A program made the position numbers and the translations under genes. Under the pieces are notes generated by a model, which did not search any database, was not told the origin of the DNA, and saw only the letters and a program-made list of their open reading frames with translations. This document shows positions 6,630 through 62,214 of a stretch of 64,000 bases of DNA, piece by piece. Numbering within the stretch: position 1 is the stretch's first letter; each line of letters opens with the position of its first letter. The stretch comes from an uncultured delta proteobacterium (GTDB taxonomy: Bacteria; Desulfobacterota; Desulfomonilia; UBA1062), in contig CAWAUM010000001.1 of the NCBI GenBank assembly GCA_963785235.1, positions 320,001 to 384,000 on the forward strand, in the 5' to 3' direction.

Positions 6630-7202
6630 ATGGGACTTTCATCATTGGAAAAAGGGGTGCTCATGGATCTGGCCCGAAGAGCGGCAACAGCCTTCACCCA
6701 AAAGGGTCTTGGTGTTGAACCTGCCGTTGATGAAAGCGGACTGCCGGACGCCCTCTTGGAAAAAAAGGGTCTCTTTGTGTCCGTCTATAAGCAAGGCGAG
6801 CTCAGGGGCTGCATGGGAACCATTCTCCCCGTGATGCCCATATGGCAGGCATGTATGGAAAACGCCCGTAGCGCCGCATACAAGGACCCCCGGTTTGTTC
6901 CCCTGGCCAATCATGAGCTGGATCATATCAGCTTCGAGATAACCATAGTAGACACCCCAAGACCATTCTCAGACGTCTCCCAGCTTAATAAAGGCATCCA
7001 TGGCCTCATTCTCACAAAGGGTTTCCGCAAGGAGGTATTTCTGCCGGGCTCCCTCAAAGATCTGCCTCAAAATACTGAAGAAATTTTCGCGAGGCTGCGG
7101 GACAAGGCGGACATGAATGATGATGATCATAACGCACCCGAGCAGTGGGAGTTCTTCCATGCGGAGGTGATATCAGAGAGAACAACGGATGATGGGTGCT
7201 AA
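6630..7202 (+). CDS. Stand-alone AMMECR1-domain protein (AmmeMemoRadiSam protein A-like)
   Basis: GLFVS..GELRGCMG, AAYKDPRF, HGLIL..FLP. Confidence 0.85.
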   Translation: MGLSSLEKGVLMDLARRAATAFTQKGLGVEPAVDESGLPDALLEKKGLFVSVYKQGELRGCMGTILPVMPIWQACMENARSAAYKDPRFVPLANHELDHISFEITIVDTPRPFSDVSQLNKGIHGLILTKGFRKEVFLPGSLKDLPQNTEEIFARLRDKADMNDDDHNAPEQWEFFHAEVISERTTDDGC

Positions 7203-51542: not shown

Positions 51543-52952
51543 TTATAGCCCTTCCATAAGCCTTTGAAAATCCCCCGAATCTTCGAGTATCTCGGGTCCT
51601 ATTGTGCGCAAATCGTCAACCTCTTTCTTTTTCAGGCTGAAGGCCGTTGGCATGTTCAGGAAGTATTCCCGCTTTTTGTGATCCTTGATCTGATCAAAAC
51701 CGATATAAATCCCATAGGTATCCACAGGCTCCGGCGGTTTGGCCGGCATACTGGTCCCAGGGCAGTTTTTATCAAGAACATCCCTGCAGTCATCGTAGTT
51801 CTGAGAGTCTCTGCGCCATTCATCGAAGGTGTTAAAGAGCTCCTGCACGGTTTCGAACGAGTAGTTGCTCATGGGCACGGATGCGATAGTATCTACTATC
51901 GCGAACAGCCCAGGGCTGCGCGGTGTCTTGTCAATCTGTGTCTTGGGCTCTGTGCGCGCATCAACGACAATGACCACGATCTTTTTGATTTTTCCCTGGT
52001 TCATTTTATTCGGCAGGTTCCACGCCAGGTCGTTCGATCCCAGGGCCACAAATACGCTGCGAAGTCCGATGTTGTCTGCCACCCCGCCGTCGAGCAGGTG
52101 GATGTATGTGCGCTCATCCTTATTCAGATAGGAGCGTGCAATGCGCGCGCGGTTGAAGCGCGGCGGGTTGTCGAGCAGATCCTTTGACGCCTCCTCCATC
52201 CAGGACGGTTCCTGATAACCGCACGTACCGGCATAATTGTTTACTATCATGGGGGTGAACGCGATGGGGAAGTTCGATGACGCCGCAACGGCACGTGCCA
52301 CGTGAACGCCGTTCAAGTCCGAGCACAGCAGGTCGAACTGATCCTGGGTGAAGGTGAACGGCGAGCCGAAAGTCATATCCGTGGCATTGATCATGATGAA
52401 GGGCCGGCGGGACCGGCTGGTCAGGTCGCCGAAGTCCTTCTGCCGGAAGATCTCCTGGTCATAGATCTCCTCGGCAAGGTCGATCCGGCCGAAGTAGGGA
52501 GAGGCAAGCCGGAACCAGTTTATGGGGTTGAACATGGAGACTATGAGGTCCGACTGGATGTTCCGGTACAAGAACACCTTCTGATATTTTTCCGGATCAA
52601 ACAGCTCGTCACCGAACAGGCCGTAGTAGGCTGCAGTGAAGCTTCCCCCGGAGATGCTGGAGATGACATCCACCTCATCGAGAAGACGTCTCTCCTTGCC
52701 TTCCCACCGGATCTTCGTATCACGCAGTTTCTCCAGCACGCCGTAAGAAAGCGCTGCGGCCCTTGTCCCTCCCCCGGAGAAGGTCAGGATGACGAAGAGG
52801 CTGTCGGAAATTTCCCGTGTGGCGAGGTTCTCAAAGCGGTATCCGGCCTGCGGGTCGTATTGGGCAAGGGGAGGGTTGACCGGATACGTGGCGCAGCCTG
52901 TCAGGATAAGGATGATGACTGCGGCCAGGGCCGTTTGGAGACGGGTTTTCAT
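51543..52952 (-). CDS. Patatin-like phospholipase lipoprotein
   Basis: Lipobox LTGC, SGGGTRA, SISGGS, DGG. Confidence 0.9.
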   Translation of the reverse strand: MKTRLQTALAAVIILILTGCATYPVNPPLAQYDPQAGYRFENLATREISDSLFVILTFSGGGTRAAALSYGVLEKLRDTKIRWEGKERRLLDEVDVISSISGGSFTAAYYGLFGDELFDPEKYQKVFLYRNIQSDLIVSMFNPINWFRLASPYFGRIDLAEEIYDQEIFRQKDFGDLTSRSRRPFIMINATDMTFGSPFTFTQDQFDLLCSDLNGVHVARAVAASSNFPIAFTPMIVNNYAGTCGYQEPSWMEEASKDLLDNPPRFNRARIARSYLNKDERTYIHLLDGGVADNIGLRSVFVALGSNDLAWNLPNKMNQGKIKKIVVIVVDARTEPKTQIDKTPRSPGLFAIVDTIASVPMSNYSFETVQELFNTFDEWRRDSQNYDDCRDVLDKNCPGTSMPAKPPEPVDTYGIYIGFDQIKDHKKREYFLNMPTAFSLKKKEVDDLRTIGPEILEDSGDFQRLMEGL

Positions 52953-53182
52953 CGATCACCTCCCAAGGGCCGGAAATCTTCGATGCGCATAGGTTTGATG
53001 GAAGTCGTATTCCGGATACTTTTCTCGATGGATGCGGGCTGATAATCCTGCGGGTCTCCCAGGTCGAACGTATGGTGTCCCCGTTCCACCCTGAGCGTAT
53101 CGTTGGTCTTTCCCGCAATCTGCCCATCGATACGAACATCCCGGGCCGTGGGATAGGAAACCACTACATATTCCATTCTCAT
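52949..53182 (-). CDS. Small PEGA-like beta protein
   Basis: GGAGGAG RBS; VRIDGQIAGKTN..L.V..G.H pattern; overlaps the patatin start. Confidence 0.6.
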   Translation of the reverse strand: MRMEYVVVSYPTARDVRIDGQIAGKTNDTLRVERGHHTFDLGDPQDYQPASIEKSIRNTTSIKPMRIEDFRPLGGDR

Positions 53183-53517
53183 GATTCTCCTCCTCCATTA
53201 CAAGGGTGCTGCCAATAAACCTCGATGTCAACTAATTACAGTCTACATTATAGGGCGAAGTCAATCAAGGTCTTAAAAAAAGGTCAACCCTCAGTAGCTC
53301 CTAGTTTTGTTAATGCCAGCATAAATCCTTCGACATCCGGGGCCGGTGCTTAATATGAACCCGTCCCCAGTTTCTCCAGTTTCCGCAAATCAGCGTATCG
53401 CCCCATTTATTGCCAATAAAATGACACATCGCAAATAAACCTGTTGATAATACGACGGTTATCCGGGTACCAAGCTATAACATAATGATTTTATGAATTA
53501 ATAAACACTGCCAATTC

Positions 53518-53533
53518 TGGCACCATTCGTGCA
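53518..53533 (+). promoter_or_regulatory. Putative sigma54 promoter
   Basis: TGGCACCATTCGTGCA (GG-N10-GC) after an AT-rich tract, about 105 bp before the receiver gene. Confidence 0.55.
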
Positions 53534-53639
53534 ATTCCGATGGCATGGGAAATAAGTTACTTGGGGGCCTGCTCACAAGTGATGCATGCAATGAAGGCCG
53601 AGATCAGGGATAGATCAATGACATAAGGGAGTTAAGGGC

Positions 53640-54038
53640 ATGAAGAGAATACTGCTTGTGGAAGATGATGAGCATATCCAATTCCTCATCAGGGAAGAAC
53701 TAATGGAAAACGGCTATGAGGTCGCCATAGCATCCGACGGGGTTGAGGCCATGAAGATGCTCCAGGCCGAAGGGGCGTTAAGCCCAGACCTTATCATTCT
53801 GGACATTCGCATGCCCAAGATGGACGGGTTCGAGACCATGGGACACATCCTGAAGTCCAAGATCGACTCTCCCATTATCATCCACTCGGCATACTCGGGC
53901 TACAAGAACCACCCGCTCACCATGGCCGCAGATGCCTATGTGGTCAAGTCGCATAATTTTACCCAGCTCAATGAGACCATAAGCGGTCTGCTGGGGATGA
54001 AAGATCCCATTGCCGTTGTGGCAGGAACTGCTGCATAG
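53640..54038 (+). CDS. Single-domain response regulator
   Basis: LLVEDD, PDLIILDIRMPKMDG, YVVK. Confidence 0.92.
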   Translation: MKRILLVEDDEHIQFLIREELMENGYEVAIASDGVEAMKMLQAEGALSPDLIILDIRMPKMDGFETMGHILKSKIDSPIIIHSAYSGYKNHPLTMAADAYVVKSHNFTQLNETISGLLGMKDPIAVVAGTAA

Positions 54039-54124
54039 TAACCGGGTTCTTTTTTTAAGACCTTTTCCTTCTTGAACATCGCGTGCAAGAGGTGCATGCT
54101 TAAGGTCCAAGGAGGTGGGTCAGT

Positions 54125-55597
54125 ATGAAGCGCCAATCTCTTCTGCGTTCCCTCATCTTCCTGGTCGTCTGCATCCTGGCAGCATCGGATTACACCCAGG
54201 CATACGCTTATTCGGTCCGCAAGGCAGCCTATGCAGGCAGGTTCTACCCGGCATCGAGCGAAGAGCTCACAAAGACCATTGCACAGTTCACCCGGGCTGC
54301 CCAGTCGTCCCCGGTCAGGTTTCCCAAAGACAAACAGCTCAGGGCCCTCATACTCCCCCACGCAGGGTATGTCTATTCGGGGCAGACAGCCGCTTATTCG
54401 GCACCGGTCCTTTCAGGCAGGCATTTTTCCAAGGTGATTGTCATGGGTCCGGACCACAGGGTCGGCTTCCCCGGCGCATCCGTGAGCACTGCCGACGCGT
54501 ATGAGACCCCGCTCGGCACCATCAGGCTCTCCGAAGATGCCTCACGGCTCAGAAAGACCGGCTGGCCGTTCACCTGCAATGCCGCATCCGATGAGGCCGA
54601 GCATTCCGTGGAGGTGGTCCTGCCGTTTCTCCAGACCTATATCAAGGAATTCTCACTAATCCCCGTGGTCATGGGCCCGGGTGATATCAATGTATATGTA
54701 AAGGCCTTTCTGCCCCTCGTGGATGACAACACCCTGCTGGTGGCAAGCTCCGACCTTTCGCACTACCTGCCCCAGGATGCTGCAAAGGTGAGGGACACTT
54801 CTACCATCGACATGATACGGCAGCTCAAGGGCGAGGGACTCACATCTGAGAGCAACAGGGCATGCGGTGCCATACCCATACGGGTGATCCTGGAGTTTGC
54901 CCGCAAAAACAAGTGGGAACCTGTTCTGCTTCATTATGCAACGAGCGGCGATGCGGTCGGTGAGTATGGCAGGGTGGTGGGGTATGCAGCAATCGCCTTT
55001 TTTGGAGGACAAGCCATGGACAAGCACTTTACCAAGGAACAGGGCATGGCCCTGGTGGCACTTGCACGCAGGACCATACAGGAGAACCTGGGTGAGCAGG
55101 CCCCGGCAAACCCGAAGCTTGCCGAGGCCCTTGCTGATGAGGCGCTCAAGGTCAAGGCCGGGACCTTTGTGACGCTGACCATGAAAGGCCAGCTCAGGGG
55201 GTGCATCGGCAGCCTTGAGGCCAGGGAACCCCTGGTGGAAGGCGTCAAGCACAATGCCCTCAATGCTGCCTTCAGGGACCCGCGGTTTTCAGCCCTGACA
55301 AAAAAGGAGCTGGCGAACGTCCATGTGGAGGTGAGCATCCTCACCGAGGCGAAACCCCTGGCCTATACCGATTCCAAAGACCTGCTGAAAAAGCTCAGGC
55401 CGGGCGTCGACGGGCTTATCATCAGACAGGGTTTAGCCGGGGCCACCTTCCTGCCCCAGGTGTGGGAGCAGCTCCCGGACAAGGAGGAGTTCCTGGCCCA
55501 TTTGTGCATGAAGGCGGGCTTGAGCCCTGATGAATGGAAGAAAGGCAAACTCGAGGTCCAGACCTACCAGGTTCAGTATTTTGAAGAGGGGAAATAA
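54125..55597 (+). CDS. AmmeMemoRadiSam protein B (MEMO1) fused to protein A (AMMECR1), with N-terminal signal peptide
   Basis: AGRFYP, PHAGY, GPDH, EHSVE, SSDLSHY, CG, VVGY (MEMO1); GTFVTL..LRGCIG, DPRF, FLPQVWEQ, CMKAG (AMMECR1). Confidence 0.93.
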   Translation: MKRQSLLRSLIFLVVCILAASDYTQAYAYSVRKAAYAGRFYPASSEELTKTIAQFTRAAQSSPVRFPKDKQLRALILPHAGYVYSGQTAAYSAPVLSGRHFSKVIVMGPDHRVGFPGASVSTADAYETPLGTIRLSEDASRLRKTGWPFTCNAASDEAEHSVEVVLPFLQTYIKEFSLIPVVMGPGDINVYVKAFLPLVDDNTLLVASSDLSHYLPQDAAKVRDTSTIDMIRQLKGEGLTSESNRACGAIPIRVILEFARKNKWEPVLLHYATSGDAVGEYGRVVGYAAIAFFGGQAMDKHFTKEQGMALVALARRTIQENLGEQAPANPKLAEALADEALKVKAGTFVTLTMKGQLRGCIGSLEAREPLVEGVKHNALNAAFRDPRFSALTKKELANVHVEVSILTEAKPLAYTDSKDLLKKLRPGVDGLIIRQGLAGATFLPQVWEQLPDKEEFLAHLCMKAGLSPDEWKKGKLEVQTYQVQYFEEGK

Positions 55598-57713
55598 TCG
55601 CCCAGTCCTGTTCAGCGTCTTAGCAGCCGGCATTTCCTCGGTTGTGGCGCAACTCATATTCATCCGGGAATTCCTGGCCGGTTTCGAAGGAAACGAGTTC
55701 GTCATCGCCCTGATCCTCCTCACCTGGCTGATGTCGACCGGCATGGGCTCGCTCATGGCGCTGTATCTCCAAAGGAGCGCCGGCGGGGCGTCTGTAAAGG
55801 CCCTGGGCCTGATGGCAATAGTACTCGCCGTGCTTCCCACCGTGCTGATCCTCATGGAGAGATTTATACGGAACACCCTTTGGGTTCAGGGTGCTTCCGT
55901 GGGGTTTTACCCGACCCTGGCCTTTGTCTTCGGAACCATCGCGCCTTATGCCCTCCTCATAGGAATCTTCTTTCCCTACAGTCTCTTCGTCCTCAGGTCG
56001 GTCTTACAGACATACCCGGCATCAATGGTTTATGCCATGGACTCTCTCGGGGCTGCAGCCGGTGGGGCGGCCTTCTCCCTTGCACTGGTCCATCTCCTCA
56101 CGCCCTTTGGGACGCTTCTGGCAGTGAACATCATCCTCATTGCAGCCTCGTGCCTCCTCCTGGTCTTTGCCGGGATGAACAGGGAGCTCATTGCAGCCCT
56201 GGTGGTTGCGGCAGCAGCCGTTCATGGGGCGGGTATGGCTCTGGAGAAGGACTCGCTGGGGCCAATGTCAGGCAAGCTCATCTCATACCGGGAATCCTTT
56301 TTCGGGAGGATAACCATCACCAGGGATCAGGAACTCTATACGGTTTTTGTGGACGGGGTCCCGGCCCTTTCAGGTCAGAACGTGAATATTGCAGAGGAAG
56401 CCAGCCACTATGCCCTCAGCCAGCTCAAAAGCGTCAGAAAAGTGCTGCTTGTCTCTTCGGTACCCGGGATCGCTGGATGAGATTAGGAAGTACCGGCCTG
56501 AAGAAATCGACTATGCCCAGCTCGATCCCTATCTGAGCGAGGTCGAAATGAGGTTGGGACTTGTCAAACCCGTACAAGGACTCCGGGTTATCGCCGAAGA
56601 CGGCCGGGCATACCTGAAGCGTACGGACAAGAAGTATGACGCCATCCTCGTGAACTACCCCGAGCCCAAGACCTTCCAGACAAACAGATATTTCACCGAA
56701 GAATTCATGCGGCTGGCCAAGGCCCACCTGAACCAGGGAGGCGTGCTGAGTTTCTCGGTGGAAGGCTACGAGAGTTATCTGTCCGCCACGGCGCGCTCTC
56801 AGGCGTCTTCGCTGTACAATACTGCTTCGGCAGTGTTTTCCCACGTGCTTATCCTTCCGGGACAGAGGATATATTTTATCACAAGCGATAGCCCATTAAG
56901 CAAGGATATCCCCGGACTCCTTGCAGGCAAGGGAATCAAGACAGATTACATCGGGTATTACTTCTCGGGCGACGTCAGCCAGGACAGGATGAGCAGCCTC
57001 ATGAAACTCCTGGATCCCCATGCACCCAGGAATACTGATCTGAAGCCCTATATCATGAGGGTTGCCCATGAGGGATGGTTTGCAAAGTACTCATCGTATC
57101 CTCTTGTTTTCTTTATAGCCCTGGCCTGCTTCTTTACCATGTACCTTACCCGTTTGCGGCAAGAGGAATTCGTCTTGTTCACCACGGGATTCGTAAACAT
57201 GGGCAGCGAGATTATCACCATCTTCAGCTTCCAGATCCTCTTGGGTTTCCTCTATATGAAGATCAGCCTTATCATAACGGTCTTCCTGGCCGGTCTCATC
57301 CCGGGAATACTCTTTGGCCGGCGCTATAAAGGGAGCATCAGGCAAAGTCTTATCATTTCCGATGGCCTTTTGGTGCTGCTCCTGATCATGTTCTTAGGCC
57401 TTCTCATTACATTCTCCCAGGGATTGAACGGGTTGTTCTTCTATTCCTTTGCCTTTCTCATTTCCGGTCTGTGCGGGTTCCAGTTTCCCCTGGTGGCAGG
57501 GGCTCACGGCGGACGGCAACACCGTTGCTGCCCGGGCATTTTCCGTGGACCTTGTGGGGGCGGCCCTGGGCATTATCCTGCTGAGCGCCCTGATCATCCC
57601 TGTCTTCGGAATTATTGTTGCCTGCACGGTCTTGATCGCAATCAAGCTTGCGAGTATTATTATCCAAATAAGCCATGGCAAAGATCACTCGGAGGAGCAT
57701 TCCTTCGTTCTAG
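55581..57713 (+). CDS. Polytopic membrane protein with central spermidine-synthase-like domain (frameshifts near 56470 and 57500)
   Basis: QLIFIREFL..FEGNE, YAMDSLGA, EEASHY, EDGR, YDAILVN, GFQFP, DLVGAALG; TM blocks on both sides. Confidence 0.85.
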
Positions 57714-58854
57714 TATGGCGCTTTGCATCGCCGGCACCACGCTGAATTGCTGGCCGGGATTTGTCCGGTGTGCCTTTGCGAACCCTTTGGCCGACATCAA
57801 GGGCAGTATCTTTAAAGGCGATGCCCCAAGCGGCTCTGGAGATATTCGAAAGAGGGGATGTTCTACCAGAAAAGTTATGGAAACAAGGTGGCCTGCCTGG
57901 TCTGCCCCAACCACTGCGAGCTCTCGGTAGGCGACAGGAGCGTATGCCGCTCCAAGGTGAACCTCGGAGGGAAACTTTACAGCATTGCCTATGGGAACCC
58001 CTGTTCCGCCACAATTGATCCTATCGAGAAAAAGCCGCTGTTCCACTTCAAACCACGAACAAGGGCCTTCTCCATTGCCACAGCCGGTTGCAATCTGAGG
58101 TGCCTTAACTGCCAGAACTGGGAGATCTCCCAATCCAGGCCCGAGGATATGAGCACGTCTGAGCTTTTCCCCCTGAAGTGATAAAGGCTGCCCGCGCATC
58201 CGGATCGGCCAGTATTGCCTACACCTATTCCGAGCCCATCTCTTTTTATGAATACATGTTCGACACTGCGCCTGGAAGCACGAAAAAACGGCATTGCAAA
58301 CCTCATGATCACCAACGGCTACATCAACACCGAGCCTCTGAACAAGCTCTGCACGGTTCTCGACGGGGCCAATGTCAACCTCAAGTCATTTTCCGACGAT
58401 ATCTACCGAAGGCTCAACGGCGGCAGGCTCGACCCGGTCCTGACAACCGTGAAGACGCTCCACGAGCGCGCCGTCCACATGGAGATCACGAACCTCCTGG
58501 TGCCCGGCTATACCGACAACGAGGACATGGTGAAACACATGTGCTCCTGGATCCTGAAGAACGTGGGGCCCGATCATCCGCTCCACTTCCTGCGGTTTTT
58601 CCCCAAATACAAGCTCGACCGGCTGGCGCCAACGCCCATCTCCACGCTGACCCGTTTCCGGGATGTCGCCATGAAGGAAGGCATCAGGTACGTATATGTG
58701 GGAAATGTCGCTGGGCACGAAGGGAACAACACCTACTGCCATTCCTGCGGCAAACTCCTCCTGGAGCGCAAGGGGTATTTCATCTCGACCTACAATCTTG
58801 ATGGGAGCAGGTGCAGATTCTGCAAGGACCGTAGTACCGGGGGTGTGGGGGTGA
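57675..58854 (+). CDS. AmmeMemoRadiSam radical SAM enzyme with Tat-like leader (several frameshifts)
   Basis: CLVCPNHC, DPIEKKPLFHF, GCNLRCLNCQNWEIS, AYTYSEP, NVNLKSF, YVYVGNV, TYCHSCG. Confidence 0.9.
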
Positions 58855-58889
58855 TGGTCGTTCATGAAACGACTGAATAGGCTGTTCTT

Positions 58890-59115
58890 TATCCCGGATT
58901 ATGCGTTTAAGATGAGTAAAAAAACTTGATCCGTTAAAAACACTCAATCTTGCAGCCTTTGCGGGATGCTGATTTTCTCGGTCCTTCAAGGCTGCAAGAT
59001 TGAGGTTTTTAACGGACCTATTTTAAAAACAATTCCATGGTCACTATGAGTGTTCATGCTTAAGGCCACCTGAAGTGCATAGAGTATGTATGGGTACATT
59101 CAATCGCAAAATCAG
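58890..59115 (-). repeat. Dispersed palindromic element, copy 2 (inverted repeat at 58930-58959/58988-59016, 28-nt loop)
   Basis: Arm TCCGTTAAAAACACTCAATCTTGCAGCCTT; flanks match copy 1 in reverse complement. Confidence 0.9.
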
Positions 59116-59118
59116 GAT

Positions 59119-62100
59119 TTATGCATGCACATGTCCGGCGAGGTATCCGCGTATCACCCTTTGAAGCTTGTCGAGATAGATGTAGGTCACAGGGGTGATG
59201 TAGAGCGTCACGATCTGGGAAAAGACAAGCCCGCCCACCACGGCAAGCCCCAGCGGGCGTCTGGATTCTCCGCCTGCACCCAGGCCGATGGCTATGGGGA
59301 GCGTGGCCATGAGGGCGGACATGGTGGTCATCATGATGGGCCGAAACGGATGAGTGCGCCCTGAAAGATCGCCTCCTCCGGGCTCTTCCCCTCCTTCCTC
59401 TCTGCATCCAGGGCAAAATCGATCATCATGATGGCATTTTTCTTCACGATCCCGATGAGCATGATGATCCCCACCAGGGCATACAGATTGAGATCAATCC
59501 GGAAGATGAGCAGGGTCACGAGCGCGCCGATGCCTGCCGAGGGCAGTCCTGAAAGGATGGTCAGCGGATGGATGAAGCTCTCGTAGAGGATGCCGAGAAC
59601 CACATAGATAACCAGTATGGCCACCAGGATCAGCACGCCCAGGCCCACCATGGATGATTCAAAGGCCTGTGCCGTACCCTGGAGGCTGCCGGTAACGGTG
59701 TCGGGCAGGATAGTGTTCGCGGCCTTTTCCACCTCATTCAGTGCGTCACCCAGTGCCTTGCCCGGGGCCAGGTTGAAGGACAGGGTTACGGCGGGGAGCT
59801 GTCCCAGGTGGTTGACGGACATGGGTCCCACGGTGCGATCCAGGTTCACTACCGTACTGAGAGGGACCAGGGTGCCGGTAGCGGACCGGATATAGAGCAG
59901 CGAGAGTGCCGATGGGTCTGCCTGATACTGCTGCTGCGAGCTCCATGATGACCTGGTAGTCGTTATTGGGGGCATAGATGGTGGATACCTGGCGGGAGGA
60001 GTACGCGCTCGCCGAGGGCCTGTTCTATCTGGAGCACGCTGAAGCCCAGGGCTGAGGCCTTGTCCCGGTTGATGCTGACGGTTATTTGCGGGTTCTTGAG
60101 CTGGAGATCGCTCGTCACATCCTGGAAGCCCGGCAGGTCCTTCAGCCTGGCCTCCAGCAGGGGCGCATACCGATACAGTTCGCTGATATCCGGGCCCTGG
60201 AGGGCGTACTGGTACTGGCTCTTGGTTTGATACCCGCCGATGCGTATGGGCGGCGGGTTCTGCAGATAGGTCTGGATGCCGGGTATGGTGGCGAGCTTGG
60301 GCCTGAGGCCCTGGATGATCTCGTCAGCGCTCTTGCTGCGCTCGCTGCGCGGTTTCAGCCGGAGCATCAAGCCGCCCGTGTTGGACGAACTGCTGCCGCC
60401 GCCCCCGCCCACGCGTGACATGACGATATCCACATTTTCGGTCCTGCTGCACAATGCGGGAAACCTTGTTCTGGTAGACCTTCATGGCCTCGAACGATGT
60501 GCCCTGGGCCGCTTCTGTTGATCCGGTGATCTGGCCTGTATCGGCGCTCGGGAGGAACCCCTTGGGCATGACCACATAGAGGTAGACGACCCCTGCCAGG
60601 AAAAGAAAGGATACCATAAGGGTTGAGCGCCGGTGATGCAGTACCCATTGAAGGCTTTTTTCATACATGCTGAGCATACCGCTGAAAAAACGCTCGGATA
60701 CCTGGTAGGCCTTGCCATGCTGCTCTAAGCCTGCAGGGTCGAAGCATGATGCTGCAGAGCATCGGCGTAAGGCTCAGGGACACGAACCCGGAGATCAGGA
60801 CGGCAACTACAATGGTTACGGCAAATTCATTGAGCAATCTGCCTATGATGCCGCCCATGAAGAGCACCGGGATAAAAACGGCCACCAGGGAGAGCGTCAT
60901 GGATATGATGGTGAAGCTGATCTCCTTTGACCCGTTTAAGGCTGCATCACGCGGGCTCTCGCCATGCTCCATGTGCCGTACGATATTTTCCAGCATGACA
61001 ATGGCATCGTCCACGACAAAACCTACGCACAACGTGAGCGCCATGAGGGAAAGGTTATCAAGGTTGTATCCTGCCAGGTACATGACCGAGAAGGTCCCCA
61101 CGATGCGACATGGGCAGCGCCAGGCTGGGGATAATGGTTGCAGAGAGGTTCCGCAGGAAGAGAAAGATGACCAGGACCACCAGAACCAGCGCGACGAGCA
61201 GCGTGATCTGGACATCGTGGATGGATTCCTTGATGGATGGCGGACCGGTCGTACATGATGTTCAGGCTCATGGATGCAGGGATCAGGGCCTTATAGCTCG
61301 GGAGGATATCTTTGATGGACTGTACTACCGCTACCGTGTTGGTGCCCGGCTGGCGCTGGATGGCAAGGACTATTGCCCGTTCGTTGTTGAGCCATGAGGC
61401 AGCCTTGTCATTTTCGACACTGTCGATTATCCGGCCCAGGTCGCCAAGCCGTACCGGCGATCCATTCCGGTAGGCGACGATCAGCGGCCGGTAGGCATCG
61501 GCGTTTTTGAGCTGTCCTTCACGTCTGGACCGTGAATGCCTTGTATTTGCCCCACAGCGTGCCTGTGGGAAGGTTGGCATTGCCGGATTCAATGGCGTCG
61601 GACACTTCATTGATCCCGACTGACCTGGTGGCAAGGGCCTTGGGGTCGAGCTGGACCCGGACGGCATATTTCTGTGACCCATATACCCCCACTTCCGCCA
61701 CGCCGTTGATCATGGAGATCCGTTTCGCAAGGAGATTTTCCGCATATTCGTCTACCGTGGTCAACGGCAGGGTCGAAGATGTCAGCGCAATAAAGAGGAT
61801 AGGTGACTCTGCCGGGTTCACCTTCCTGAAGCTCGGGGGCGACGGCATGTCCTCGGGCAGGTGACGCGTGGCCGACGAAATGGCTGTCTGGACGTCCTGG
61901 GCCGCTGCGTCTATGTTCCGGTTGAGATTGAACTGCAGGGTGATCTGGGTGCTCCCCTGTGAGCTCGATGAGGTCATGGAATCGATGCCGGCGATATTGG
62001 AAAACTCCTTTTCCAGCGGTGTTGCAACGGAGGAGGCCATGGTCTCCGGGCTTGCTCCCGGAAGGCTTGCAGATACACGGATGGTGGGGAAATCCACATT

Positions 62101-62214
62101 GGGGAGCTCGCTGACGGGCAGCGCCCTGTAGGCAACAATGCCGAAGATGAGAAACGACATCATGACAAGGGTGGTCATGATGGGGCGCTCTATGAAGATA
62201 CGTGAGATGTTCAT
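59119..62214 (-). CDS. RND efflux permease (MdtB/C-like), many frameshifts
   Basis: [60 protein letters not shown], spread over about 7 ORF pieces. Confidence 0.92.

Follow-up and report, generated by a model that had tools for sequence, protein, structure and literature searches.

Can a radical SAM system of the AmmeMemoRadiSam type work outside the cytoplasm, when SAM itself is located in the cytoplasm? The question is raised by three overlapping forward-strand genes at 54125-58854 of the window (the whole stretch of DNA analyzed, 64,000 nucleotides). An earlier note on this DNA had described them as a MEMO1-AMMECR1 fusion starting with a signal-peptide-like segment, a polytopic membrane protein with a spermidine-synthase-like domain and a radical SAM enzyme with a twin-arginine leader. 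The gene arrangement was confirmed at these coordinates and the three assignments stood, that of the membrane protein being refined to an MFS transporter fold. Passages of Balaji and Aravind 2007 (PMC2034487) already note MEMO-AMMECR1 fusions and propose RNA base modification as the role of the canonical system, which is taken to be cytoplasmic; the terms "signal peptide", "secreted" and "membrane" have no occurrences in PMC2034487. No published description of an exported AmmeMemoRadiSam trio with a membrane partner was found.

The three-gene locus and its frameshifts

The features of the locus are as follows.

53640..54038, + strand: receiver-only response regulator, 132 aa, just 5' of the fusion gene (ORF; a representative matches PF00072)
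54125..55597, + strand: MEMO-AMMECR1 fusion (AmmeMemoRadiSam B and A in one chain), 490 aa, intact (TIGRFAM and Pfam matches)
54125..54208, + strand: Sec-type signal-peptide-like N-terminus, 28 aa, with basic start, hydrophobic core and A-x-A end (translation)
54218..55000, + strand: MEMO domain, residues 32-292 (TIGR04336 profile positions 1-270 of 270)
55049..55582, + strand: AMMECR1 domain, residues 309-486 (TIGR04335 alignment)
55530..57713, + strand: membrane protein gene, overlapping both neighbour genes and read in three frames in the assembly
56274..57087 (approximate, indel at 56475), + strand: SpeE (spermidine synthase) fold domain, orthologue residues ~249-519 (PF01564, structure)
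57675..58854, + strand: AmmeMemoRadiSam-type radical SAM gene (TIGR04337, 306.1 bits across breaks, cut-off 220)
57675..57780, + strand: twin-arginine-type leader with T-R-R, F-L-R, weakly hydrophobic core, basic residue and A-F-A
58089..58112, + strand: CxxxCxxC radical SAM cluster motif (motif location)

In profile searches the fusion protein scored 233.1 bits against TIGR04336 (MEMO; cut-off 26) and 215.5 bits against TIGR04335 (AMMECR1; cut-off 99), with Memo and AMMECR1 both matched in Pfam; the LRGCIG motif of the AMMECR1 domain starts at 55193. The radical SAM gene carries five single-base indels in the assembly, its corrected true stop being at 58852-58854, and the intact orthologue scored 357.5 bits against TIGR04337. 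As in canonical AmmeMemoRadiSam systems (TIGR04335/04336/04337), the three families thus score above curated cut-offs, the genes are co-located and the cysteine motifs are identical.

The frameshifts suspected in the earlier note proved real in the assembly. Comparison with a 96%-identical relative (G011) located seven single-base indels in the membrane protein and radical SAM genes, within 2.4 kb of the window. These are listed without strand, each relative to G011 and to contigs of the metagenome runs named.

56473..56475: indel 1, one extra base (run X3)
57514: indel 2, one extra base (runs X1, X3)
57694..57697: indel 3, one extra base, where the membrane gene end and the radical SAM leader overlap (X1 and X3 at 57694, X5 at 57697)
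57823: indel 4, one C missing in a C run (all four runs X1, X2, X3, X5)
58168: indel 5, one C missing in a C run (runs X2, X3)
58271..58272: indel 6, one extra base (run X3)
58824: indel 7, one extra base, giving a false C-terminal extension to 58880 (run X3)

The same seven sites are intact in contigs of the four metagenome runs, from three studies, some pieces being 99% alike, and other genes are also broken in the same assembly, namely an RND pump gene at 59119-62214 and, elsewhere, ilvD and a second radical SAM gene. Assembly error, and not gene decay, therefore accounts for the seven frameshifts. Seven relatives carry unbroken copies of the three genes, with products of 488-506, 702-726 and 392-405 aa respectively, apart from one radical SAM gene that is truncated where its contig ends. 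Seven frameshifts in so short an interval might suggest that the cluster is a decaying pseudogene remnant, or that its genes are adjacent by chance, but this is extremely unlikely given the intact sites in G011 and the four runs, the breakage of ilvD, an essential gene, in the same assembly and the conservation of the trio across phyla.

This conservation was established by scanning GTDB species genomes with the membrane protein; 158 relatives were confirmed and 80 loci retained. These belong to Desulfobacterota, Bacteroidota, Ignavibacteriota, Spirochaetota, Verrucomicrobiota, Planctomycetota and several archaeal groups, and include a radical SAM gene in 71, MEMO in 57 and AMMECR1 in 63. Where at least 3 kb was available on both sides of the membrane gene, radical SAM and MEMO/AMMECR1 were both present in 38 of 42 loci, so that the co-occurrence which the earlier note proposed to profile holds across bacterial and archaeal phyla. 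No conserved fourth gene was found among the 80 loci, the next neighbour clusters occurring in 9 and 8 loci. A receiver-domain cluster lies close to the membrane gene in 9 of the 80, chiefly in close relatives; the response regulator at 53640..54038 may belong to the same operon, outside the conserved core.

Leaders of the two soluble proteins

The N-terminus of the fusion is exactly that quoted in the earlier note, and its leader ends in A-Y-A, three residues ahead of the start of the MEMO profile at residue 32. A hydrophobic N-terminal segment was found in 60 of 64 MEMO/AMMECR1 ORFs linked to the membrane gene, some of them lipobox-like. The leader of the radical SAM enzyme is split in the assembly by an extra base at ~57694, with MAKITRR (57675-57695) in one frame and AFLRSSMALCIAGTTLNCWPGFVRCAFA in the next to 57780, and is unbroken in relatives. 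Of the 69 radical SAM ORFs with a linked membrane gene, 66 carry a twin-basic motif followed by an uncharged hydrophobic stretch; two of the others are cut at a contig edge and one has a broken frame. The motif is RR in 37 leaders, KR in 24, RK in 4 and KK in 1, KR, RK or KK thus replacing RR in 29 of the 66. Both kinds of export signal therefore survive frameshift correction and are conserved.

Compared with canonical AmmeMemoRadiSam, the locus differs in having export-type leaders on both soluble proteins together with a conserved membrane protein gene, and in that the radical SAM sequences of such loci group separately in the tree. A single branch divides the 55 linked sequences from the rest (SH-aLRT 87, from a quick search only and under the 95 mark), and their mean column identity across phyla is 61%; the CxxxCxxC cysteines (C93, C97 and C100 of A3) and the SAM-binding motifs are invariant in all 55. 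Besides the putatively exported set, the window's genome holds unlinked MEMO, AMMECR1 and radical SAM paralogues, which have no leader. Twin-arginine-leader radical SAM genes were also observed at four loci (L146, L148, L151 and L152) with no membrane gene within 9 kb. By sequence, the nearest characterised radical SAM relatives are the glycyl-radical-enzyme activases (PflA family), of which the radical SAM protein is not a member since it scored 58.3 bits against TIGR02493 (cut-off 231.75); no glycyl radical enzyme was found in the neighbourhood of the trio.

Iron-sulfur proteins exported by Tat include hydrogenase small subunits, DmsB-type subunits and Rieske proteins with uncleaved Tat anchors. 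Their twin-arginine motif, weakly hydrophobic core and basic residue before the cleavage site are all seen here, and the loading of cofactor ahead of export that characterises them is proposed here too. We know of no radical SAM enzyme among them, and a phrase search of the literature did not find a published Tat-exported radical SAM enzyme; unlike the known examples, such an enzyme would depend on SAM and a low-potential reductant being available where it is delivered. A TatC gene was found in the window's genome and in five of five small archaeal genomes with the system; among 14 archaeal-labelled loci, 8 have TatC immediately next to the system.

The Tat model PF10518 (gathering score 22.7) gave sub-threshold matches to two of five leaders tested (E 0.042 and 0.07) and no match to the other three, the window's orthologue among them. 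Radical SAM leaders of the window's genus have an A-x-A cleavage site; elsewhere the leader resembles an uncleaved anchor, many lacking A-x-A and having ~20 hydrophobic residues with basic residues at both ends. Such leaders, like the low PF10518 scores, could mean that the N-terminal segments serve to anchor the proteins in the membrane or to bind a partner, and that the complex sits on the cytoplasmic face, with SAM and reductants at hand. When a single helix follows a basic N-terminus, however, the next domain is normally outside; linked MEMO-AMMECR1 leaders have an A-x-A or lipobox-like site at their end, immediately ahead of the domain; and the eight archaeal loci with adjoining TatC also speak against a cytoplasmic position. 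The leader sequences thus support the earlier proposal that both soluble enzymes are directed outside the cytoplasm. All of the earlier note's refuting conditions that computation can address turned out in favour of its reading.

Fold and orientation of the membrane protein

The intact orthologue in G011 has 726 aa. The AF2 model of the membrane protein (pLDDT 89.4, pTM 0.88) comprises seven helices, a SpeE fold and seven further helices, with TM1-6 and TM9-14 forming an MFS fold and TM7, the SpeE-like domain and TM8 inserted between its halves. Alignment by hhalign shows homology between the halves (97%, E 1.2e-10), which carry acidic residues at equivalent positions, in TM5 (64/65 sequences) and TM13 (65/65). 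The best structural matches of the helices are the amine/organic-cation antiporters VMAT2, VAChT, FLVCR, NorA and SotB; those of DHA1/SLC18 type (VMAT2, VAChT, SotB and NorA) gave Z scores that were, in descending order, 27.2, 26.5, 25.2 and 24.7 over 337-354 aligned residues, VMAT2 scoring 27.2 (rmsd 3.3, 337 aligned) and SotB 26.5 in VIA. The membrane protein shares with these antiporters a 12-helix fold, homologous halves and membrane-embedded acidic residues, but identity is only 9-12% and two extra central helices hold a 270-residue enzyme fold on the predicted outer face. No Pfam MFS family matched the membrane protein. As modelled, it combines a 12-helix MFS transporter fold with two additional helices; its closest likeness is to organic-cation antiporters, which is compatible with the supply of a SAM-like molecule.

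The middle frame piece of the membrane gene matched PF01564 (Spermine_synth, E 6e-9), and the SpeE-like domain matched Thermus SpeE 1uir_B in Foldseek (E 2.2e-10, TMt 0.67) and 1uir_A in VIA (Z 23.6). Residues E330 (59/65), D357 (65/65) and D370 (62/65) are conserved and, as judged from sequence, the nucleotide-binding motifs of SpeE are retained. The aspartate of the GGGDGG loop, which in SpeE is the cause of rejection of the carboxylate of SAM, occurs in 0 of 65 domains. A D/N-L-P-E/D-P motif retains the SpeE acidic residues in part; of the 65 domains, 31 have N and 23 have D at the position of the first catalytic aspartate, so transferase activity is doubtful. The polyamine aminopropyltransferase model NF002956 (PRK03612), with an N-terminal helical block and then a SpeE fold, aligns with residues 20-406. 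Scores below cut-off for NF002956 (68.8 vs 472 bits) and for NF037959, fused MFS/spermidine synthase (21.5 vs 40 bits), place the protein in neither family. It differs from such membrane-bound SpeE-type proteins in that its SpeE fold lies between MFS halves and is not terminal, it has no glycine-loop aspartate and its gene is tied to radical SAM and MEMO/AMMECR1.

Lysine plus arginine in short loops averages 14.9 on the termini side and 2.3 on the SpeE side, a bias in the same direction in 65 of 65 sequences, and the termini of full MFS transporters are cytoplasmic. In a sister family (f2) the membrane protein is fused to FMN_bind (PF04205) and Fer4_5 (PF12801) domains with CxxxCP helices between them, and eight helices separate its SpeE domain from FMN_bind, which is periplasmic in NqrC, RnfG and NosR. 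The charge bias, the MFS topology and the sister fusion all predict that the SpeE-like domain sits on the outer side of the membrane, away from the cytoplasm. In four of six f2 loci a signal-bearing MEMO-AMMECR1 and the long membrane protein accompany a leaderless radical SAM gene, and leaderless radical SAM genes lie next to membrane-anchored MEMO/AMMECR1 at loci L144 and L145; the three enzymes therefore need not share one side of the membrane, and the sister branch runs counter to a simple picture with all of them outside. A cytoplasmic radical SAM enzyme in this variant and the cytoplasmic location of SAM would suit a complex on the cytoplasmic face, but the charge bias puts the SpeE-like domain opposite the termini in every sequence, in agreement with both MFS topology and the FMN_bind fusion, and such a complex is quite unlikely.

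Predicted docking and a possible envelope pathway

The co-folding suggested in the earlier note gave a score of 0.75 (median of three runs) for the pair of SpeE-like domain and radical SAM core, the best of three docking controls scoring 0.02. At least 79% of contacts were common to the runs and partner pLDDT was at least 90. Of 80 solved complexes 58 attain the docking mark, as do 2 of 110 mismatched pairs; since the present model used our own alignments, these counts are only a rough guide to it. Conservation in the SpeE-like domain is no higher at the predicted interface (0.488) than elsewhere in the domain (0.519). As we know of no solved SpeE-radical SAM complex, the result is unlikely to arise from model memory. 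In the model the docking covers the active-site face of the radical SAM enzyme, which may be compared with the action of PflA-family activases on a docked protein partner.

All three proteins might be exported with a transporter that is not a SAM supplier. The MFS part would then export a polyamine or other organic cation, the SpeE-like domain would be a transferase, or a mere binding or scaffold domain, on an envelope component, and the exported radical SAM enzyme would use SAM bound before export, for a single turnover, or be an iron-sulfur redox or structural partner. The antiporter likeness and the partly retained acidic residues of the D/N-L-P-E/D-P motif fit such an arrangement. So does the sister family, in which the domain pair of NosR/NapH-type conduits, not present in the window's protein, accompanies a leaderless radical SAM enzyme; redox outside may therefore serve MEMO/AMMECR1 and not the radical SAM enzyme. 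The invariance of cysteines and SAM-binding motifs in 55 of 55 linked sequences nevertheless argues for continued catalytic use of SAM, and with the SAM-excluding aspartate missing in 65 of 65 SpeE-like domains and docking predicted over the active-site face, a transporter unconnected with SAM supply is unlikely.

In the preferred reading, with SAM supplied across the membrane, the radical SAM enzyme would be folded and loaded with its iron-sulfur clusters in the cytoplasm and then cross the membrane by its Tat-type leader, while the MEMO-AMMECR1 fusion would exit by a Sec-type or lipoprotein-type signal. The two extra helices would hold the complete spermidine-synthase fold over the outer mouth of the transporter, where it would cover the active-site face of the docked radical SAM enzyme. 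The transporter may export a cationic adenosyl compound, most simply SAM, which the SpeE-like domain may capture and pass to, or share with, the docked enzyme; MEMO and AMMECR1 may then finish the modification of an envelope or membrane target, possibly a lipid. We only infer the substrate, the SAM supply and the reductant: to our knowledge there is no known source of SAM or low-potential electrons outside the membrane, and no gene offering either was found among the conserved neighbours in the 80 loci. Taken together, the evidence, all of it computational, makes it fairly probable that this self-contained three-gene module represents a distinct branch of AmmeMemoRadiSam with its working parts apparently on the outer face of the cytoplasmic membrane. 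If these are indeed outside, SAM-dependent radical chemistry would take place in an unexpected location.

Three overlapping genes in an indel-rich assembly

Reading of ORFs and frames bore out the three overlapping forward-strand genes that the earlier note had placed at 54125-58854, with the following features.

54125-55597, + strand, MEMO-AMMECR1 fusion gene, 490 aa, intact
55530-57713, + strand, polytopic membrane protein gene with a PF01564 (Spermine_synth) match in mid-protein
57675-58854, + strand, AmmeMemoRadiSam-type radical SAM gene, TIGR04337 306.1 bits across frame breaks (cut-off 220)
58089-58112, + strand, CxxxCxxC motif of the radical SAM gene

Ahead of its domains the fusion protein has 28 residues that start basic, continue as a hydrophobic core and close with A-Y-A, the arrangement of a Sec signal in which A-x-A or a lipobox directly precedes the mature domain. 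A MEMO domain (residues 32-292, TIGR04336 233.1 bits, cut-off 26) and an AMMECR1 domain (residues 309-486, TIGR04335 215.5 bits, cut-off 99) follow. The radical SAM leader is read in two frames as T-R-R, a one-base slip, F-L-R, a weakly hydrophobic stretch and a basic residue (V-R-C-A-F-A), that is, a Tat motif of the S/T-R-R-x-F-L-K type which is present in unbroken form in relatives, and an intact orthologue of the enzyme scores 357.5 bits with TIGR04337. All components of the canonical AmmeMemoRadiSam system (A, B, radical SAM and their co-encoding) are found here; the trio is a known, uncharacterised system, of which the leader-bearing module with a membrane protein is a new variant.

The frameshifts suspected from the sequence are real in the assembly, and are assembly errors on the evidence of a same-genus relative (G011), four metagenome runs and other broken genes. 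Single-base indels distinguish the window from the G011 contig, to which it is 96% identical, at seven positions (56475, 57514, 57694, 57823, 58168, 58271 and 58824). The same seven indel sites were found in contigs of four short-read runs from three studies aligned to 56300-58900, all bins of which are covered in run X3 only, with parts uncovered in X1, X2 and X5; the indel at 57823 is common to all four runs, and some contig pieces are 99% alike. In seven relatives the trio is intact (488-506, 702-726 and 392-405 aa), with a contig end truncating one of the radical SAM genes. Further broken genes in the window's own genome (G000) are those for an RND pump, ilvD and a second radical SAM gene approximately 150 kb away. 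The RND efflux pump gene (window 59119-62214, - strand) lies in at least five ORFs, and the frameshifted ilvD and second radical SAM gene occupy about 529.6-532.4 kb of G000:C1 (locus L108). A pseudogene reading of the broken frames was rejected, as the sites are intact in G011 and in the run contigs and ilvD is broken too. Since the G000 assembly is rich in single-base indels, any gene model taken from it needs frame checking.

A promoter and terminator scan of 53000-59300 gave counts not above those of shuffled sequence (5 vs 4.1 and 8 vs 6.2, respectively). A terminator-like hairpin at 58947-58967 (+ strand), about 95 bases past the corrected radical SAM stop, is likewise of a kind not enriched relative to shuffled sequence, and a look-up of runs listed no RNA datasets containing the stretch. 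Upstream, a 469-aa ORF at 51543-52952 (- strand) has a lipoprotein-like start with a hydrophobic stretch ending in T-G-C, and by eye resembles a patatin-like lipase.

Recurrence of the module and of its export signals

The membrane protein alignment was used to scan one genome per GTDB species; 158 relatives were confirmed, and the best 80 loci were kept. By label these belong to Desulfomonilia and other Desulfobacterota, Bacteroidota, Ignavibacteriota, Spirochaetota, Verrucomicrobiota and Planctomycetota, and to Woese-, Aenigmat-, Alti- and Theionarchaea. Iterated profile searches, run over every ORF of these best 80 of 158 loci, identified a radical SAM partner in 71, MEMO in 57, AMMECR1 in 63 and all three domains in 55. 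Where at least 3 kb was available either side of the membrane gene, both the radical SAM gene and MEMO/AMMECR1 were present in 38 of 42 loci; two of the remainder had the radical SAM gene only (L093, L099) and two had neither (L071, L095). The proposed co-occurrence of the membrane protein with signal-bearing partners was thus upheld across phyla, and chance adjacency was rejected because the trio recurs across phyla in the 80-locus set. Clustering of all 852 ORFs of at least 90 aa in these loci revealed no conserved fourth gene (for instance, one for a precursor peptide, ferredoxin, cytochrome or SAM synthetase), the largest further clusters being response regulators (9 loci) and TatC (8 loci; representative PF00902, E 6.9e-55).

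Mean column identity among the linked radical SAM proteins is 61% across phyla, an unusually high value, and in a quick maximum-likelihood search of 85 sequences all 55 linked sequences fell on one side of one branch (SH-aLRT 87); the tree label 'RRlead' follows a loose rule and is wrong for L129 and L132. One locus, L036, lies on a 4984-base contig assigned by label to Promethearchaeota. Here the membrane protein shares 44% identity with the query, and the radical SAM sequence branches within Desulfobacterota, suggesting mis-binning of the contig or recent transfer.

To count as a leader, an N-terminus needed a twin-basic motif 1-40 residues from a start codon and, after it, 10 uncharged residues with a mean hydropathy of at least 0.9. 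This rule was passed by 66 of 69 linked radical SAM ORFs (RR 37, KR 24, RK 4, KK 1), the three failures being two contig-end cuts and one broken frame. The fuller motif [ST]-R-R-x-F-[LI]-[KR] occurs mostly in Desulfobacterota, Spirochaetota and archaea, whilst Bacteroidota have mostly K-R. When five leaders were compared with PF10518, a very short model, two gave sub-threshold matches (E 0.042 and 0.07, 13.6-14.3 bits vs 22.7) and three were unlisted. A strongly hydrophobic N-terminal segment was present in 60 of 64 MEMO/AMMECR1 ORFs by a simple hydropathy rule that is not a calibrated prediction, and many of these segments end in A-x-A or a lipobox-like L-x-G/A-C. Four ORFs failed: in two the segment can be seen by eye, another is the rear half of a split ORF, and L060 is without it. 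The export-type leaders expected by the earlier note are therefore present and conserved once frames are corrected.

The window's genome encodes TatC (248.3 bits). TatC also adjoins or sits between system genes in 8 of 14 archaeal-labelled loci (L060, L065, L072, L073, L076, L090, L092 and L093), in one case separating the membrane gene from the radical SAM gene; these are small genomes (0.6-1.5 Mb where sized), and TatC was found in all five small archaeal carrier genomes examined, among the carriers being the L072 genome, which is marked unpublished. In these tatC-adjacent archaea Tat may have this system as one of its main clients. Taken together, the leaders support assignment of the leader-bearing radical SAM protein as a Tat-type iron-sulfur enzyme that is predicted to be exported.

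Co-occurrence of Tat-bearing TIGR04337 members with the membrane gene, which the earlier note had suggested profiling, is seen among the linked genes, nearly all of which carry leaders. Less in keeping with the model, twin-arginine leaders are also common on TIGR04337 members without the membrane gene. The leader rule was passed by 12 of 30 TIGR04337 loci sampled from 151 genomes of the phylum, with L141 added by eye, and several such loci lack a membrane gene within 9 kb when wider flanks are considered. A second, more distant radical SAM family (approximately 350 aa, PF04055) is also twin-arginine-led. Its genes, listed here, are in divergent orientation to adjacent leader-bearing TIGR04337 genes, with no MEMO, AMMECR1 or membrane gene near.

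L149:7015-8085, PF04055 radical SAM gene with leader
L150:10911-11966, PF04055 radical SAM gene with leader
L154:7323-8423, PF04055 radical SAM gene with leader
L155:2369-3448, PF04055 radical SAM gene with leader

Judged from these leaders, export of radical SAM proteins may extend more widely in this phylum.

Leaderless counterparts occur in the same genome. The second radical SAM gene of G000 (G000:C1:531328-532357) is without a leader, as are a stand-alone second AMMECR1 (window 6660-7169, + strand, TIGR04335 124.8 bits) and two further MEMO genes on contigs 2 and 12, which lack a hydrophobic leader. These form a dispersed, ordinary set, of which the exported set is therefore a paralogue. 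At L144 and L145 leaderless radical SAM genes lie beside anchored MEMO/AMMECR1, and in four of six loci of a sister family (f2) of the same class the gene for a long membrane protein of 1192-1368 aa is adjoined by a radical SAM gene lacking a leader and by a MEMO-AMMECR1 gene with a signal.

L025:4746-8402, f2 long membrane protein gene
L026:5127-8783, f2 long membrane protein gene
L157:8570-12673, f2 long membrane protein gene
L158:9131-12706, f2 long membrane protein gene

The radical SAM step can thus be cytoplasmic in close relatives, at odds with a simple model in which all three proteins act outside. This favours a substrate located in, or moving across, the membrane and speaks against direct action of the radical SAM enzyme on MEMO/AMMECR1.

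The membrane protein and its predicted contact with the radical SAM enzyme

An AlphaFold2 model of the membrane protein from 65 sequences (pLDDT 89.4, pTM 0.88) consists of seven helices, a soluble domain (residues 249-519, numbered as in the intact 726-aa orthologue of G011) and seven further helices. The soluble domain is a complete SpeE fold by Foldseek (1uir_B, E 2.2e-10, TMt 0.67) and by the structure-comparison search VIA (1uir_A, Z 23.6, rmsd 3.4, 277 aligned), and the protein matches PF01564 with 36.6 bits (cut-off 22.9). The spermidine-synthase equivalog level is not reached (TIGR00417 26.7 vs 249.55; NF002010 37.0 vs 260), and none of the curated TIGR/NF-type family models matched the membrane protein at cut-off. 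Public relatives are named 'spermidine synthase' (JGI) or 'hypothetical protein' (NCBI), and the nearest ESM Atlas clusters are all 'hypothetical protein' with PF01564.

For the helices, the best VIA matches among 48,161 chains were VMAT2 (Z 27.2, rmsd 3.3, 337 aligned), SotB (26.5), VAChT (25.2), FLVCR2 (25.0) and NorA (24.7); about 45 of the 50 matches listed are MFS transporters (Z 27.2-19.5), compared with a level of about 13 expected for helical bundles. This fold was seen only in the wide VIA search, Foldseek with the whole model returning SpeE and methyltransferase chains only, and among sequence models no Pfam MFS family was matched at E up to 0.1 and NF037959 gave 21.5 vs 40. By hhalign, TM1-6 and TM9-14 are homologues of each other (97%, E 1.2e-10), so that TM7, the SpeE fold and TM8 represent an insertion in the central MFS loop. 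Acidic residues are conserved in TM5 (64/65) and TM13 (65/65). These models support an MFS fold like that of organic-cation antiporters, with a SAM-fold domain mounted at the outer mouth.

Three independent arguments support the predicted placement of the SpeE fold outside the cytoplasm. Short loops contain a mean of 14.9 K+R on the side of the termini vs 2.3 on the SpeE side, with the same sign in 65/65 sequences. The termini and central loop of MFS proteins are cytoplasmic, and hence one extra helix leads outward to the SpeE fold. In f2 the protein continues after TM14 with one helix, FMN_bind (PF04205, E 3.9e-11), a block of about five helices that bear CxxxCP motifs, and Fer4_5 (PF12801, E 9.6e-14), eight helices separating the SpeE fold from FMN_bind, a domain that is periplasmic in NqrC, RnfG and NosR. 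This extension, a feature of the f2 homologue, constitutes a NosR-like electron conduit across the membrane.

Within the SpeE-like domain E289 and H293 (65/65), E330 (59/65), D357 (65/65), D370 (62/65) and N385 and R386 (65/65) are conserved. The aspartate of the GGGDGG loop, which in SpeE selects dcSAM, is found in 0/65 sequences, column 312 being S 33, G 13, P 7, A 7, T 4 and F 1. The catalytic D-x-x-D-P motif of SpeE aligns to D/N-L-P-E/D-P, with N in 31 and D in 23 of 65 sequences at the first position (N in the window's genus) and E in 33 and D in 24 at the second acidic position.

The earlier note had suggested co-folding of the proteins, and a complex of the SpeE-like domain (residues 240-528, 65-row alignment) with the radical SAM core (55-row alignment) scored 0.75 (median of three runs) vs 0.02 for the best of three controls. 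It passes a mark reached by 58/80 solved complexes and 2/110 mismatched pairs, counts that hold only roughly here because own alignments were used. At least 79% of contacts agreed between runs and partner pLDDT was at least 90. In the model the radical SAM interface includes the stretch immediately following the cluster motif, along with further conserved motifs of the active face; contacts on the SpeE side include the N-terminal sheet (247-286) and two loops, 413-421 and 472-486. Conservation in the SpeE-like domain is no higher at the interface than elsewhere (0.488 vs 0.519). The modelled complex supports putative binding of the radical SAM enzyme by the SpeE-like domain.

A possible extracytoplasmic radical SAM pathway

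Leaders and models together support an arrangement in which the soluble parts of all three proteins are built to lie outside the cytoplasm. The MFS part would then export a cationic adenosyl compound, most simply SAM, to the SpeE-like domain, which is without the residue that would exclude the SAM carboxylate and could present the compound to the docked radical SAM enzyme. MEMO and AMMECR1 would share this enzyme's target, probably a molecule of the envelope or membrane. Memo gene contexts were reportedly linked by Burroughs and colleagues in 2019 to nucleotide-base and isoprenoid modification, and the isoprenoid context would fit a lipid target. We know of no bacterial SAM exporter and, to our knowledge, neither a reductant nor a source of SAM outside the cytoplasm has been described.

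The full reading is offered tentatively, as one judged somewhat likelier to fail than to hold in all its parts: this would be the first radical SAM pathway outside the cytoplasm, in which a Tat-exported enzyme docks on the outward SpeE-like domain, receiving SAM from the dedicated MFS exporter that bears this domain, and Sec-exported MEMO and AMMECR1 finish modification of an envelope molecule or membrane lipid, the module having spread between bacteria and small-genome archaea, some with an adjoining tatC.

Radical SAM enzymes, which depend on SAM, a strong reductant and iron-sulfur clusters, are regarded as strictly cytoplasmic. A subfamily that is conserved, widespread and equipped with export signals challenges this view, as does an outward SAM-fold domain on a transporter that is predicted to dock the radical SAM enzyme; the leaders and the transporter-borne domain point to a possible trans-membrane route for SAM or a relative. 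In the literature searched, outside Burroughs et al. 2019, no report was found of periplasmic, extracytoplasmic, exported, secreted or Tat-dependent radical SAM enzymes, nor anything linking a spermidine-synthase-like membrane protein with AMMECR1. The AMMECR1/MEMO/radical SAM trio has been predicted to modify RNA bases (PMC2034487), and by word count 'signal peptide', 'secreted' and 'membrane' are absent from that paper. This proposed role cannot apply to the exported form, for which a membrane or envelope substrate is the leading idea.

With three genes the system is small as well as self-contained, and it lends itself to testing in a laboratory host. Human homologues of MEMO and AMMECR1 are disease-linked and have no agreed function, and an extracytoplasmic pathway, if true, would give a first biochemical handle on both proteins.
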